Below, piece by piece: positions 2,256 through 49,288 of a stretch of DNA of 51,058 nucleotides (positions within the stretch are counted from its first letter, which is position 1; each line of letters begins with the position of its first letter). Under the pieces are notes generated by a model. The model saw only the letters and a program-made list of their open reading frames with translations. It was not told the origin of the DNA and ran no database searches. The position numbers were made by a program, and so were the translations under genes. The stretch is from Myxococcota bacterium (GTDB lineage Bacteria > Myxococcota_A > UBA796): NCBI GenBank assembly GCA_038520555.1, contig JBCBLB010000002.1:1-51058 (forward strand), given 5' to 3'.

Positions 2256-2600
2256 TCAGCCTCCTCGCATCGTCTCAATGAGGTTTTTCTGCAGCCGCTG
2301 AGCGATCTGCCAGCTCCGACGTCGAAGCTCCTCGGTCACCTCAGCCTGTACGGTCTCGTCTTCACCCACCCGCCGAACAAAGCCGCCGTAGCCGCCCCGC
2401 CTGTCGCGGGCGGTGTTGATGAGGGTGAAGCCCTGCTCGGTGAACGAAAGCTCCCATGAGCCCTTGAAGTTCCCCGTTCGAACCGGACTGCGCTCTTCCG
2501 CCCACTGCTGCAGCGCTTCCCCTTCTTCCTTGAGGATCTGCTGCTGCCGCTGCTGCGCACGTTGGAAGCGCGCCACATAGTCGGGGGTCTGCCGGCTCAT
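2256..2600 (-). CDS. HK97 gp10-like tail completion protein
   Basis: SPVRTGNFKGSW motif and later YGGFV, neck-module position. Confidence 0.65.
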   Translation of the reverse strand: MSRQTPDYVARFQRAQQRQQQILKEEGEALQQWAEERSPVRTGNFKGSWELSFTEQGFTLINTARDRRGGYGGFVRRVGEDETVQAEVTEELRRRSWQIAQRLQKNLIETMRGG

Positions 2601-3019
2601 GGGCGCCCTCCCTGGACCACCCGGAGCATGAAGGGTTCAGGGTGGGCGGTGTGTCCAGCAGGCGCCAGACGCGCCGAGAGCGCGTCCCAGACCGCCCCAG
2701 GCAGCATCACCATCAGATCCGCCACCAGCTCCTCGAACAAGGTCGGCTCTGCGGGCTGGCCTGCGCGATGGACGTGGGCCGCATAGGGGGTGGTGTTGGT
2801 GATGAGCCAGCCGATCCGGTCATCAGCCAGGGGCTCGACGGCAAACGCTCGCGCGCACGCCCCGCTCCGCTGTGGCCACTGCAGGAAGAAGAACTCCTGA
2901 ATAAGCGCCGCATACTCCGCGATGACCTGCCGCTCCGGGCCCGGCAGCACCACCTCACGCCCCCGCGCAGTCTTGAGGCGGGCAGAGACGGAGGGCAGCA
3001 GCAGCGTGTGTCGGATCAT
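2597..3019 (-). CDS. Second, divergent gp10-like neck protein
   Basis: WPQRSGACARAF ... ITNTTPYAAHVH resembles the gp10 PVxSG ... NxxxYAxxV pattern. Confidence 0.5.
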   Translation of the reverse strand: MIRHTLLLPSVSARLKTARGREVVLPGPERQVIAEYAALIQEFFFLQWPQRSGACARAFAVEPLADDRIGWLITNTTPYAAHVHRAGQPAEPTLFEELVADLMVMLPGAVWDALSARLAPAGHTAHPEPFMLRVVQGGRP

Positions 3020-3474
3020 GCGTCCAGCTCCGTCCCGAGGCTGCCGACGCGACTGACGGTGAACTGCTGCACGATGACGTAGTGCTCAGCGTCAACCCGT
3101 CGATCGGTCGTCCCCGCATAGGTGACCTCTTCGACGCCCGCCGCAGAGTGCCAGGGGTAGTGGGTGAGGTGCTTGCGAACCCGTGTCTCCAACGCCACCG
3201 CCCCCCGCCGACTCTCCCGCTGCCCGTGGGGGTTGATCCGATACGAGAGCCCCACCGTGAGCGTGTCTGTCATTCGGGTGTCGTGCCGCTCTCGGCGCTG
3301 CCCTGCGTTCGTGGTCGGGCCCAGGATGATCCACACCCCCTGATGCGCCAGCCCCTTTGGGGTGCCCCGCGGCTGCACCAGGCGGTTGATGAACGTGAGC
3401 CCGAGCGCGCCGTCTGCCAGACGTGCCTCGAACGCGTCAATCACCTGCTCCAGCTCAGTGGTGGCCATCACCAC
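3016..3474 (-). CDS. Putative tail terminator / head-tail joining protein
   Basis: ~150 aa alpha/beta pattern in the neck module, translationally coupled. Confidence 0.45.
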   Translation of the reverse strand: MVMATTELEQVIDAFEARLADGALGLTFINRLVQPRGTPKGLAHQGVWIILGPTTNAGQRRERHDTRMTDTLTVGLSYRINPHGQRESRRGAVALETRVRKHLTHYPWHSAAGVEEVTYAGTTDRRVDAEHYVIVQQFTVSRVGSLGTELDA

Positions 3475-4229
3475 CCCCCGCCGTAGTCATGACCGAACCG
3501 GCCCCGCTGAGGCGCCGCCGTGAGCAGCAGCGGCCCCTGCCCTGCGGCCGGCGTCTCCTCAACCTCATCAAGGGTGCCGTCCTCATCACCGTCATAGCGG
3601 AAGGAGAGATCGCCCATCTCCGCCTTGTACTCGTCGAGCCGCGCCTTGTATTCCTCCATGTACCGGGTCTGACCACCCATCTTGATGGCTGCATCCCGGT
3701 AGGCGTACGCCAGAGACAAGGCGACGTGCGCGTCGGTCAGGTCGTAGCTGTCGAAGATGAGCCATGGCCTGCGCCCCTTCTTGAGCAGGTCGCGCTGGAT
3801 CTTCTCGATCGCCTTGATGCGGTACTTACCGAGATCGTTGACGCCTGACGGCAGCAGGGAGAGCAGATCGCTGTCGGCGTAGGTGAGGTCGGTGTCGATG
3901 ATCGTGGGTGTGAACAGCTGCCGGACCAGGTAGCCCGCGCGCTGGAAGGTGTGTGCGGCGCCGTCGAGGGTGACGCTCCAGGTCTCCAGCCATCCATCGT
4001 GTGGCACGCGCCCTTCGGTCGCTGTCGAGGGCAGCGTGTAGCTCGCCGGTGGGCCGAGCGTGGTCGCGGCAGCAGCAGCCACGATCTCTTCGCCTCCAAG
4101 ACGGACCGTCACCGTCGCCGCGGTTGCGGTCAAACGACTGCTGGCGACGTCGTAGATGTCCAGGTCCAGCGCTGTCTCACGACCGATCTGGACGAGCCGG
4201 GGCAGGCGCTGGCGGACCGTGTGCGTCAA
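3468..4229 (-). CDS. Putative head-tail adaptor
   Basis: Helical C-terminal half, neck-module position, coupled to neighbours. Confidence 0.45.
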   Translation of the reverse strand: MTHTVRQRLPRLVQIGRETALDLDIYDVASSRLTATAATVTVRLGGEEIVAAAAATTLGPPASYTLPSTATEGRVPHDGWLETWSVTLDGAAHTFQRAGYLVRQLFTPTIIDTDLTYADSDLLSLLPSGVNDLGKYRIKAIEKIQRDLLKKGRRPWLIFDSYDLTDAHVALSLAYAYRDAAIKMGGQTRYMEEYKARLDEYKAEMGDLSFRYDGDEDGTLDEVEETPAAGQGPLLLTAAPQRGRFGHDYGGGW

Positions 4230-32908: not shown

Positions 32909-33412
<504 letters not shown>

Positions 33413-35405: not shown

Positions 35406-35445
35406 GCCTGAGAAGGGCTCCGGGAGGGTGCCCTCGTCGAAGGAG

Positions 35446-35519
35446 TTGGAATGAGCGGACTTGAACCGCTGACCCCCGCCGTGTCAGGACGGTGCTCTAG
35501 CCAACTGAGCTACATTCCA
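35446..35519 (-). tRNA. tRNA-Val (GAC)
   Basis: TGGAATG/CATTCCA acceptor, CCGTC-CTGACAC-GGCGG anticodon arm, AGCGG-TTCAAGT-CCGCT T arm. Confidence 0.95.
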
Positions 35520-45744: not shown

Positions 45745-46170
45745 CAAGAAGTCGGCCAGCGCGATCTGACTGTTAAACGGACGGCTTCGCTTGATCCAGA
45801 GCACCCGGCCGACCACGTCCCCGCTGATGGTCAGCGCCATCGACGCCGGATCCTGGGAGAGCAGCACCCCCAGGCTGCGGCCGGCGGAGACCGTGGTTGG
45901 AATCAAGACTTCCGCGGGGCGGTTGTTCTTGAGCCGGACGGGGGTGTCGGTGAAGCCCTCGCCGACGACGGTGTCCTGGAGGCGGATCTGATAGCGGACG
46001 CCGTTGAGGCGCATGGGGAGAAGCCCTTCGCGGGTGACATGGGCGCGGACGGTGAAACGCACCCCGCCCAACCCGATGGAGAGGTCATCGATCCCGACGA
46101 CATCGGTGGTGATGCGCGCGGCGTGCGCCTCTGGCATACTGAGCGCAGCGATGAGAAGCAGAGCAGACAT
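45556..46170 (-). CDS. LEA_2/WHy-like exported protein
   Basis: Signal peptide after GGAGG; PMRLNGVRYQIRLQDTVVGEG pattern. Confidence 0.6.
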   Translation of the reverse strand: MSALLLIAALSMPEAHAARITTDVVGIDDLSIGLGGVRFTVRAHVTREGLLPMRLNGVRYQIRLQDTVVGEGFTDTPVRLKNNRPAEVLIPTTVSAGRSLGVLLSQDPASMALTISGDVVGRVLWIKRSRPFNSQIALADFLSAVEGPSRSDLAVFEQPQPLVGVEGAVVADGAAAGEVDLDGGDGREVAQADVGGEAVLAALP

Positions 46171-46257
46171 CGACCCTCCCGGCGGTTGGTTGACCCCATG
46201 GCGGTCCAGGGTATTCCAGACGCGCCGAATCCGTACGAGCATGTGCAAGGAATAGCG

Positions 46258-47070
46258 ATGAGTTGGTTTCAACGACAGGGAATGGGCAACAACGAGCGCG
46301 AGATCGCGGCGAACCAGGGCCGCTATCTGCGGGCGGCGGGCGTCGACGCGGCCCTGGGTGCCCTGGCCGGCCCGTTCGGGGTGCGCCGGTTCGCGGTCCG
46401 CTTTGCCGCTCGCAACGGACGCGTCCAGATTCAGGCGATCGAAGCGATGCCGCTTCGAGACGGCGGCGGCCCGCCCCCTCCAGATCCACGAAAGAAGCAT
46501 CAGGATGCCCTCGCCGCTGCGCTGACGAAGCTGTGGAAGAACATGCAGGTGGGGCCGCGTTGGAGTCGCGGGGTGATCGGCTACCTCCGCGACCGCACCG
46601 ACGCCGTCCAGATCCACCCGCTGTTCGACGAAGACGCCGACGTGGCGACGCTGGAGCGGCTGCCGATGCCGCTGGGCGGCGGGCACCCGCTAGAGTCCCC
46701 GGCGTACCAGTCGATGCGCAACAATAACGAACACCACATGACCCGACTGATGTCACGGACGGCGATGATCGGCGGGGACTGGGACGTATGGGAGCTGGAC
46801 GGCGGGCAGCTTCGGCTTCACCTGGACCAGGAAGTGCGGCGGCACCGCTGCCAGGTGCTCGGCGTGCTGGAGGTCGATCCGGGGCGGTTCACCTGGGTGG
46901 TCGACAACCCCCTGTTCGGTGAGCCCGACGTGTTCACCGAGCCGAACTTCAGCGCAGACTGGAACGCCGCCAACGAGCTGGGCTTGTTGACCGCGGCGCG
47001 GCTGGAAGCCGATTGGCTGTTCGTCGGAGATCTGGAGGATGGACGGGTGTTGTTCGCCGCAGTGTACTGA
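46258..47070 (+). CDS. Hypothetical protein
   Basis: ATG after AAGGA; good GC3 bias. Confidence 0.7.
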   Translation: MSWFQRQGMGNNEREIAANQGRYLRAAGVDAALGALAGPFGVRRFAVRFAARNGRVQIQAIEAMPLRDGGGPPPPDPRKKHQDALAAALTKLWKNMQVGPRWSRGVIGYLRDRTDAVQIHPLFDEDADVATLERLPMPLGGGHPLESPAYQSMRNNNEHHMTRLMSRTAMIGGDWDVWELDGGQLRLHLDQEVRRHRCQVLGVLEVDPGRFTWVVDNPLFGEPDVFTEPNFSADWNAANELGLLTAARLEADWLFVGDLEDGRVLFAAVY

Positions 47071-47096
47071 CCCACCCGCTCCCAGCCCCCGATAGC

Positions 47097-47475
47097 ATCC
47101 GTTCTTGCGTTCTTTCTGCGATTTGCCTTCGTGAAGGCAATCGTCGCCCTGTATCCAGCGGCGTCTGCTTCTACGACGAGAACGCAGATGTCTTCGACAC
47201 CGGAGCGCCGACTGCATCGTTCTGAACCGTTCCGGTTCAGAACGATGCAGTCGGTGAGGTGTTTCCCTTCGTTTCACCTCAGAGAACGCCAGGATCGGTC
47301 ATCGATGGGGGATTGGTGCCTGATGGGAATCACTGGTTCCCATCAGGCACCAATGAAGAGAAGCATTCGATGACCAGCCATCATCACAACCGCTCGCATC
47401 CTTCCGCCCTGGCTTCGCCTCGGCAAACGGGGCCGTTTGTCTACAGACACCGAGGCCTCTACAGACAGCGGTGAT
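47097..47475 (+). ncRNA. Candidate large structured RNA of unknown class
   Basis: Multiple nested stems including perfect 22-bp and 18-bp hairpins; G-U pairs favour the plus strand. Confidence 0.5.
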
Positions 47476-47491
47476 AAAGACGTCGAATCGG

Positions 47492-49288
47492 TCAGCGTTC
47501 TCGTTGGACCTTGACGAGGCTGTAGCTTTCGACGATGCGCGCGACCCAGAAGCCCAGAAACGCTGCGATGATCGCAACAAACCAGCCGTTGACCAGCCAC
47601 CGGATGGCTCCCTCGATGAAGTCGAGGTGGGTGCGATGGAGGAAGGTGTTGAGGGTCCCGCCTTCGCGAAAGTCGATGGTGATCCATCCCCAGTCGATGC
47701 CCAGGCTGACCAACGCCAGGGCCAACAGCGCCCAGCACGCGGTCCGGATGAGCCCAGCGGCGATCCGGGGCAGGCGGTTGAAGCGGCGATAAATTGATCG
47801 GGTGGTTTGTTGGTAGAGGATGACCTGTTCTTTGATGAGGTCTGGCAGGCGCAGGACGAACAGGGTGGTGTTCAGGGCGCGGTCGAGGGCCTGTCCGGGC
47901 TGGGTGAGCTTCTCGATCTGGCGCAGCCGGACGACGCGGAGCGACTGGGCGATCTCGGCGTGGTAGTCGAGGTCAGGGACCAGCCGGAGCGCGCTCGCAT
48001 CGACGCTCATCAGGGCCTTGAAGTAGAGGATGGTGTTCATCGACAAGGTCAACCCGATCGCGCGGGCGAGGTCCATGGTGGCGATGACGAGGTTGGTGAC
48101 GCTCTTTTCATCGAACGCAGCGCCGGGGTTATCGCTGGCATCGAGCCATGCGTCCGCCGCATCGGAGAAGGTCTCGAAGAAGTCGGTGACCAGCAGCCCG
48201 CGGGGCGCGTCGAGGAGATCGAGGACGGCGACGAACAGGCGCTCGATGTCCCTGGCGACGACGGCGTCGAACAAGGCGAGCTGCTCGCGGAGGTCCTCGG
48301 GGTGCATCCGCCCCATCAGCCCGAAGTCAACGTACCCGATGACGTTGTCGGGCATCACGATGAGGTTGCCGGGGTGGGGGTCTCCATGAAAGACTTCTCC
48401 GACGAAGGACTGGAGGAAGTGGTTCTGGAGGATCTGGGCGGCGATGTCTGTGGGGTCGCAGTTCATCATCTCCAGGTCTTCATCAATGGTCGAATCCCCG
48501 CGTTCCAGGCGCCGGATCACCTCTGCGACGGAGATGCCATCGAGGTACTCCATCGTGACGACGCGCCGCCCGGTGAACGCCCAGTAGATGTAGGGGATCC
48601 GCTGCTGATCGTTCCACTCGGTCTCTTCATAGACCCGGTCGGCGTTCTTGGCCTCAAGGGTGAAGTCGGTCTCTCGCCGGGTCCATCGGACAAAATCCCG
48701 AAACACCGGGCGCAGCTTGAGCTGACCGAGGACCCGGGAGGCGTCGACCAGGGCGCCGAGGATCAGCAGCCAGCGGGCGTCCCGGTCGAAGTCTTTCGCG
48801 GCGCCGGGGCGCTGGACCTTGATGACCGCCCGCCGCCCCGTGTCCGGCCCCTGCCCGATGACCACGCGATGGATCTGGCCGAAGCTCGCGGCGGCGAGCG
48901 GTGTATCCTCGAAGGCTTCAAACAGCGCTCCGATCGGCTGGTTGAGCTCTGTCTCAATGATCTGGCGTGCTTGCTGGGCGGGGAACGGCGGCACGCGGTC
49001 ATACAACGTCTCCAACGCCCGGCAGTACCGCCGCGGCAGGACGTCGTAGCGCATCGAGAGCAGCTGGCCGAACTTGACGAAGGGCCCGCCCCGGGCCTGG
49101 AGGAACCCGGCGAGCCGCCTGGGCCCCCGTGTGAGGAGCTGGGCTCTTTGCTCGTCGGACGGAAACGGCAGGCGCGCGACGGCCTCGAAGAACAGCGTGG
49201 GGAGGAAGAAGGCGCCGAAACCGACCACGACCTCGAGCCCGCGAGGGACCCGACGCGAAGCCGGGGCGCGGACCTCCTCTTCTTCCAA
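47492..49288 (-). CDS. ABC1/UbiB (AarF) family kinase
   Basis: FVKFGQLLSMRYD, PLAAASFGQIH, IKVQRP, FHGDPHPGN, VDFGLMG; C-terminal TMs. Confidence 0.93.
   Translation of the reverse strand: MEEEEVRAPASRRVPRGLEVVVGFGAFFLPTLFFEAVARLPFPSDEQRAQLLTRGPRRLAGFLQARGGPFVKFGQLLSMRYDVLPRRYCRALETLYDRVPPFPAQQARQIIETELNQPIGALFEAFEDTPLAAASFGQIHRVVIGQGPDTGRRAVIKVQRPGAAKDFDRDARWLLILGALVDASRVLGQLKLRPVFRDFVRWTRRETDFTLEAKNADRVYEETEWNDQQRIPYIYWAFTGRRVVTMEYLDGISVAEVIRRLERGDSTIDEDLEMMNCDPTDIAAQILQNHFLQSFVGEVFHGDPHPGNLIVMPDNVIGYVDFGLMGRMHPEDLREQLALFDAVVARDIERLFVAVLDLLDAPRGLLVTDFFETFSDAADAWLDASDNPGAAFDEKSVTNLVIATMDLARAIGLTLSMNTILYFKALMSVDASALRLVPDLDYHAEIAQSLRVVRLRQIEKLTQPGQALDRALNTTLFVLRLPDLIKEQVILYQQTTRSIYRRFNRLPRIAAGLIRTACWALLALALVSLGIDWGWITIDFREGGTLNTFLHRTHLDFIEGAIRWLVNGWFVAIIAAFLGFWVARIVESYSLVKVQRER

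Follow-up and report, generated by a model that had tools for sequence, protein, structure and literature searches.

The window, a 51,058-nt stretch of DNA, is contig C725 of the assembly of an uncultured marine bacterium (9.52 Mb, 976 contigs, 64% G+C). The assembly has a completeness of 92.6% and a contamination of 6.35%, and the counts of repeat copies given below are therefore approximate. The region of interest is a 421-nt spacer (positions 47071 to 47491) bounded by two convergent ORFs, and the ORF list bore out the first-pass annotation in that the spacer has no credible ORF (Table 1). The protein encoded by the upstream gene matched Pfam DUF6882 with 23.5 bits, just below the cutoff of 23.9. 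Homologues of this gene were present in 13 of 15 genomes of the same family, at an identity of only 35 to 42%, and the tblastn alignments extended to the C terminus (residue 342 to 344) in the 11 genomes with stored loci. No ABC1 gene was found within the ∼1.5-kb flanks of the upstream-gene homologues in these 11 genomes, and the spacer is thus without an orthologous comparator. A search of metagenome_contigs for related loci confirmed no relative. The sole RNA genes detected in the window by Rfam and ARAGORN were those for tRNA-Pro(GGG) at 32909-32983 on the plus strand and tRNA-Val(GAC) at 35445-35519 on the minus strand.

Table 1. Features of the spacer and its flanking genes, and folding of the parts of the spacer. 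Parts were folded separately, with 200 shuffles each; z values are given for the plus (+) and minus (-) strands.
Feature	Position	Strand	Details
Upstream convergent gene	46039..47070	+	343 aa; stop codon forms the spacer edge; weak DUF6882 match
GATAGCAT box	47091..47098	+	GATAGCAT or GATACCAT is the 5′ boundary of family-1 copies elsewhere; weak lead only
Unique stretch with small hairpins	47106..47186		Closed by TGCGTTCT/AGAACGCA (47106-47113/47179-47186); no second genomic copy
Closing stem of "domain 1"	47107-47113/47283-47289		GCGTTCT/AGAACGC; inverted-repeat scan
8-bp hairpin	47123-47130/47133-47140		Inverted-repeat scan
Family-1 core	47187..47254	+	Small hairpin (GATGTC TTC GACACC), then GGAGCGCC, then long hairpin
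Perfect 22-bp palindrome	47208-47229/47233-47254		3-nt loop; inverted-repeat scan
7-bp hairpin	47255-47261/47275-47281		Locus-unique; not above chance (z -0.53/-0.65 for 47255-47296)
Outer degenerate palindrome	47292..47378		Left arm 47292-47309 is 72% like 47310-47327; 9-bp stem 47297-47305/47367-47375
Second palindrome	47312-47329/47337-47354		Perfect over 18 bp; 21 bp if one T.G pair is allowed
"Domain 3"	47376..47491		Unique; short nested stems GCCTCGG/CCGAGGC and CAAACGG/CCGTTTG; TCTACAGACA direct repeat
Downstream convergent gene, ABC1 atypical kinase-like	47492..49288	-	598 aa; Pfam ABC1, E 1.4e-54
Fold of 5′ part	47091-47186		z -2.35 (+), -2.38 (-); 4 of 200 shuffles equally good (for -2.35)
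Fold of family-1 core	47187-47254		z -9.3 (+), -9.6 (-)
Fold of 7-bp hairpin region	47255-47296		z -0.5 (+), -0.65 (-)
Fold of second palindrome with 9-bp outer stem	47297-47375		z -8.0 (+), -8.3 (-)
Fold of "domain 3"	47376-47491		z -0.03 (+), -1.94 (-); + strand equals chance
Fold of spacer with both palindromes cut out			z -2.34 (+), -1.21 (-)

Every stem listed in the first-pass annotation was present where it had been placed. However, the reading of some of them changed. The stem said to close "domain 1" exists, but it is ambiguous, as the segment 47106-47113 pairs equally well, with eight perfect base pairs, with 47179-47186; the sequence GAGAACGC occurs again at 47178 and 47282. The nested stems and the direct repeat of "domain 3" were likewise found, but on the plus strand the domain folds no better than chance; it may be a 3′-end hairpin of the minus-strand gene. 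The bias of G-U pairs toward the plus strand held for single stems (47161-47168/47184-47191 and the apex of the second palindrome) but not overall. For instance, the best stem of "domain 3" requires G.U pairs on the minus strand, and the total minimum free energy (MFE) was slightly lower on the minus strand.

The dense base pairing claimed for the spacer stood up against shuffled controls. The whole spacer had an MFE of -197.1 kcal/mol on the plus strand (z -9.71) and -202.7 kcal/mol on the minus strand (z -7.78), in each case beating 100 out of 100 dinucleotide shuffles. However, the excess was concentrated in the two palindromes, and little of it remained when these were cut out (Table 1). 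The two perfect palindromes thus supply nearly all of the folding excess of the spacer. The 5′ part (47091-47186), which is not repeated, retained a modestly above-chance structure. Genome-wide, 47 perfect palindromes with a stem of at least 18 bp and a loop of at most 9 nt were found, and two of the 47 are in this spacer, less than 150 nt apart. What is real and unusual here is a pair of palindromes in an otherwise ordinary spacer.

Several of the 47 palindromes, located at position 1 of their contigs, look like artifacts of assembly. Zero-loop perfect palindromes with 40 to 71 bp per arm start contigs C745, C811, C41, C193, C395, and C661; they are probably artifacts, inflating genome-wide palindrome counts. 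Another one, a 46-bp perfect palindrome at C459:1527-1620, has an arm resembling a tRNA T-arm plus the acceptor 3′ end and could be an attachment-site duplication or an artifact.

BLAST and nhmmer searches of the window's own genome showed that only two parts of the spacer recur, 47187-47254 and ∼47310-47356. The demonstrably repeated share is therefore ∼115 of 421 nt (27%), and the remaining ∼73% is unique in this assembly; across the whole assembly, the segments 47071-47190, 47250-47300, and 47376-47495 matched nothing other than themselves. Dispersed copies, which the first-pass annotation had named as evidence that would refute its reading, were thus found for the core hairpins (at 14 and 4 loci), although without any visible target duplication. 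The first of the two parts, the core of what we call family 1, was 93 to 98% identical over 47187-47239 to copies on contigs C917, C968, C605, C217, C677, and C490. A profile of the core, built from 10 copies (C605, C217, C917, C677, C490, C725, C937, C380, C968, and C91), found 14 loci on 14 of the 976 contigs, with those on C237, C115, C733, and C181 lying beyond the set used for building it. Six of the 14 copies are at most 450 nt from a contig end, and the summed contig depth over 47164-47257 was 54 to 128 compared to a baseline of ∼9 to 10 in the probable source metagenome. Both observations are consistent with a multicopy repeat. The sequencing runs linked to this stretch were three DNA runs of one marine-metagenome study, of which one is probably the source; the two nonsource runs gave no cover of the unique spacer parts upstream of 47399.

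A full-length family-1 copy is ∼130 nt long and consists of a TGATA(C/G)CAT box with a 5′ hairpin module, a 10-bp hairpin, the self-complementary GGAGCTCC, an imperfect long hairpin with a 3×3 internal loop, and the end sequence CCGTATGAG. A good example of this is the C217 copy, in which three consecutive hairpins fold with z values of -5.2 and -7.2. The parts of the repeat also occur separately. The 5′ module was found at four loci without a match to the core profile (C180, C32, C341, and C495), the C677 and C968 copies have the core but lack the 5′ module, and on C180 a short start and a short end of the core are joined. The copies on C605, C217, and C490 are near-identical over ∼130 nt in unrelated flanks, which points to recent copying. 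The box at 47091 in the window, GATAGCAT, or alternatively GATACCAT, is also found at the 5′ edge of the copies on C917, C380, C91, C341, and C180, and GATAGCAT has 49 occurrences in the genome when both strands are counted. However, the segment 47071-47186 gave zero matches to a profile of the 5′ module, even with filters off, and the 8-mer is all that they have in common. For this reason, 47091-47283 is not claimed as one repeat copy.

Copies of the repeats were found in every kind of genomic context, after a stop codon, before a start codon, and between convergent or divergent genes. The genes downstream of them, as judged from N termini read by eye with no Pfam check, are functionally unrelated (LysR, HemB-like, peptidase, AAA ATPase, SulP-like, PKS-like, and methyltransferase-like), and a shared regulon of the downstream genes was rejected on the ground of these unrelated functions. 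The varied contexts and the unrelated downstream genes make a specific cis-regulatory leader unlikely. Some copies have peculiar surroundings. On C733 (positions 1 to 142; L067), a 15-nt tandem array with the unit GGCTTCGATGTCAGA runs from the contig start straight into a diverged family-1 copy, and on C605 the copy lies before a LysR-type gene. Elsewhere in the assembly, C267:1-140 and C265:1-140 are identical, representing either assembly redundancy or a further repeat.

The second palindrome belongs to a smaller family, with three other copies at C612:7421-7466, C405:6437-6483, and C556:597-647, or four loci in all. In this family the arms are conserved and the loops are different. The degenerate palindrome that surrounds it in the window (47292-47378) looks like an older copy of the same palindrome. 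The copy at C612:7421-7466 (L072) lies immediately next to the ribosome-binding site and the start codon of a gene on the minus strand that reads as LysR type.

An alignment of 13 family-1 copies showed how the perfect 22-bp stem of the window differs from the rest of the family. The window copy matches the family up to CGGTTCA, and what follows is exactly complementary to the left arm of the same copy. In 9 of the 13 copies, CGGTTCA is followed by (A/G)(T/G)CTCG instead; the hairpin is imperfect in most copies. It was perfected from the left arm in the window and on C181 and, as a mirror image, from the right arm on C91. Judged from this alignment, the perfect stem of the window was derived locally from the imperfect hairpin of the family. 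What stands out most in the spacer is therefore a mutational product of this locus and not a conserved design. The imperfect hairpin may have been "corrected" against its own left arm by quasipalindrome template switching during replication, a mutational mechanism described in PMC7202029 and PMC8794818 that would be expected to leave such a pattern. The three independent copies are a clear example, found in nature, of an imperfect hairpin becoming a perfect palindrome.

Little conservation was found beyond this genome. Among 40 related genomes, 15 of them from the same family, 39 gave no match and one (G033) gave a marginal match of 33 nt at 85% identity (E 0.005). The exact degenerate pattern of the family-1 hairpin matched nothing in either genome_contigs or metagenome_contigs, and the family-2 18-mer had 37 single nonpalindromic matches in 596 Gb compared to ∼70 expected by chance according to our own arithmetic; these scans count exact matches, in collections that may omit records of the genome to which the window belongs. 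No covariation was detected among the 13 aligned copies, in which the score was 0.075 compared to 0.071 for shuffles, 163 of 500 shuffles scored as high, and one pair had double changes. RNAalifold found no common fold of the copies (-5 kcal/mol). In addition, the diverged copy on C937 has lost its fold stability (z -0.9), in contrast to the young copy on C217, which fits decay and not structural selection. The spacer matched no known RNA family in Rfam at the gathering score. Even at E values up to 5, only miRNA and snoRNA models appeared, with 15 to 25 bits against thresholds of 44 to 103, and the other repeat copies yielded one subthreshold miRNA match and nothing else. Both repeat families appear undescribed, judging from the lack of an Rfam match and of copies in those public collections that were searched, and they break the assembly at several contig ends.

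Taken together, these data make it probable that the spacer is a mosaic, in which two lineage-specific palindromic repeat modules of a MITE-, BOX-, or REP-like kind sit in otherwise unique noncoding DNA, and that it is neither one large RNA gene nor a retron msr-msd. Module 1 (47187-47254) belongs to the modular, ∼70- to 130-nt, three-hairpin intergenic family and module 2 (47312-47354) to the four-copy palindrome family; both were copied to several intergenic locations in this genome and are presumably selfish or nonautonomous repeats. The first-pass annotation had favored a single structured noncoding RNA of ∼380 nt with a retron-like layout. This is unsupported, since the two elements with a strong fold are dispersed repeats (14 and 4 loci) whose other copies lack the "domains," there is no reverse transcriptase (RT) in the window, and Rfam found no match. 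Of the alternatives it had offered, a nonautonomous hairpin mobile element came closest, but as two modules of ∼70 and ∼45 nt and not as the whole 380 nt. At the present site, the hairpins would form in the 3′ untranslated regions of both convergent genes and may block read-through or protect 3′ ends; any function that they have here is probably incidental. Neither long palindrome is followed by the T run of an intrinsic terminator, and a terminator scan gave one weak plus-strand site at 47417-47433 and one minus-strand site at 47599-47583, inside the ABC1 gene.

The traces that mobile elements often leave were also looked for. No consistent target-site duplication was seen by eye in the flanks of a few full-length copies (C217, C490, C937, C917, and C380), and the only terminal inverted repeat was a weak 6-mer, TGATAC...GTATGA, with 5 of 6 positions complementary. 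No empty site and no cognate transposase were seen. A single match to Y1_Tnp, IS200-like and scoring 41.6 bits, was found at ∼3284 to 3898 of contig C780 (L011:1291-1905), in an assembly that is 92.6% complete and from which a RAYT or Y1 gene could be missing. By reading, this ORF seems to lack the middle and C-terminal portions of the domain, and there is no repeat copy on C780; the ORF is probably a remnant. REP-type elements usually come in more copies than the 14 and 4 counted here.

Several other readings of the locus were weighed against the mosaic. The spacer, or its 5′ two-thirds, might be an independent structured RNA that recruited repeat modules as domains, in the way that composite RNA structures can arise from BOX elements. 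Such an RNA would account for a very stable fold on both strands in a spacer with no credible ORF, for the z of -2.35 in the nonrepeated 5′ part, and for a promoter-like GATAGCAT box at 47091, which other copies of family 1 also have at their 5′ edge. In addition, the TGATA(G/C)CAT box of family-1 copies is similar to an extended -10 element, making transcription from inside the repeat possible. However, the region 46900-47700 contains zero sigma-70-type promoter sites and, on the plus strand, a single weak terminator-like site; the nonrepeated parts have no homologue anywhere in the genome; and the lack of an Rfam family, the lack of covariation, and the chance-level plus-strand fold of domain 3 also argue against it. 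The box itself was rejected as a general promoter motif. Its two forms, TGATAGCAT and TGATACCAT, occur 6 and 8 times genome-wide compared to ∼20 expected from base composition, meaning that the box belongs to the repeat; comparison of flanks placed four of the six (C917, C380, C91, and C341) and three of the eight (C217, C490, and C937) in repeat copies. We therefore regard an independent structured RNA as unlikely. Quite unlikely, too, is the proposal that the ∼130-nt three-hairpin family, from the TGATA(G/C)CAT box to CCGTATGAG, is an undescribed small mobile or expressed element, either a single-stranded DNA hairpin moved by an unrecognized enzyme or a multicopy, promoter-bearing structured leader RNA. 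If it were, the window copy, with its perfected hairpin and extra stems, would represent a composite RNA that is expressed, and in a remoter variant the element would serve the type XIII retron RTs of the genome in trans.

The palindromes could instead be operators or other cis sites for dimeric DNA-binding proteins of one regulon, in keeping with family-2 arms that are conserved around variable loops like two half-sites, with the C612 palindrome directly before the ribosome-binding site of what reads as a LysR-type gene, and with the self-complementary GGAGCTCC of family 1. This is very unlikely, since half-sites of 18 to 22 bp far exceed usual operators, several copies lie between convergent genes or after a stop codon where there is no promoter to regulate, and the neighboring genes are functionally unrelated. 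Furthermore, the ∼70 to 130 nt common to the copies indicate copying of a unit and not convergent conservation of a site. The least probable of the readings, to the point of being hardly credible, is that domain 1 is an orphan msr-msd reverse transcribed in trans. The genome does encode two retron-type RTs (PF00078, whole assembly), on C267 (∼2456 to 3838) and C574 (3762-5105) (L012 and L013), and none is on C725, which agrees with the claim that the window has no RT and answers the suggestion that the genome be searched for retron RTs. Both were best matched by PADLOC RT_XIII (E 2e-109 and 3e-152), with NAxxH and VTG motifs present. The C574 RT gene lies directly after a SWIM_XIII gene, and the C267 RT gene is preceded by a divergent HEAT-like ORF and followed by an FGE-sulfatase-like one. 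Beside neither RT was there an obvious msr-msd; inverted-repeat and sliding-fold scans of these short contigs were unconvincing and Rfam gave nothing, and C574 ends 134 nt past the RT gene in an apparent partial tRNA gene. Both the two RTs, one with its SWIM_XIII partner, and the missing msr-msd would favor a trans arrangement, as would the superficially similar layout of a closing inverted repeat, short hairpins, and a long hairpin. However, the RT genes are on other contigs, whereas passages of PMC7736814 describe a retron noncoding RNA that is contiguous and cotranscribed with its RT and has terminal inverted repeats (a1/a2), one to three msr hairpins, and a long msd stem. In addition, the would-be msd belongs to a dispersed repeat with 14 loci, and the other copies have neither the closing repeat nor the "msr" hairpins; the perfect 22-bp form was derived locally, the closing stem of 7 to 10 bp has an equally good alternative partner, and the spacer has no sequence similarity to the RT contigs.

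The mosaic reading carries a caution for the annotation of G+C-rich metagenome-assembled genomes, in which exceptional folding of a spacer can be due to one or two selfish palindromic repeats rather than to an RNA gene. According to passages of PMC7736814, type XIII retrons are typical of myxobacteria, which is no more than a hint at the taxonomy of this genome. The layout of the spacer bears a superficial likeness to their msr-msd (e.g., the Mx162 type), with an inverted repeat that surrounds short hairpins followed by a single long hairpin. In the window, a 7- to 10-bp closing stem (47104-47113/47283-47292) encloses short hairpins and the 22-bp hairpin. Unlike in a retron, however, there is no adjacent RT, the long hairpin is a dispersed repeat, an extra hairpin comes after it, and the closing stem is both short and ambiguous, its 5′ arm pairing equally with 47179-47186.

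REP and BIME sequences resemble the present repeats in being extragenic imperfect palindromes, sometimes mosaic in one spacer, without terminal inverted repeats or target duplications. The differences are that the units here are longer (47 to 130 nt) and low in copy number, with no conserved 5′ tetranucleotide recognized, and that where REP elements are associated with a RAYT (Y1/HUH), this genome has one apparently truncated Y1 ORF without flanking repeats. REP hairpins stabilize upstream mRNA. MITEs with structured transcripts, such as Correia/NEMIS of Neisseria and ERIC/IRU of enterobacteria, are ∼100- to 150-nt intergenic elements that form mRNA hairpins and can carry promoter-like boxes. 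Like MITEs, the repeats described here are short, noncoding, and multicopy and have unrelated flanks; in place of the terminal inverted repeats and target duplications of MITEs, they have TGATAC/GTATGA and no duplication.

The BOX, RUP, and SPRITE families of Streptococcus pneumoniae have far more copies than the ∼14 to 18 loci found here. With BOX in particular, which is likewise small, noncoding, intergenic, modular, lineage restricted, and rich in secondary structure, the present repeats have no sequence relationship, and the likeness is one of analogy and not homology. The modules here would be the 5′ module, the small hairpin, the long hairpin, and the 3′ tail, some of which are missing from some copies. 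Both BOX and the present repeats are probably cotranscribed with neighboring genes. In PMC3049150, the pneumococcal repeats are read as parasitic and not as host RNA genes, affecting cotranscribed genes through their secondary structure. By architecture, the modular BOX family would be the closest analogue of the repeats in this spacer.
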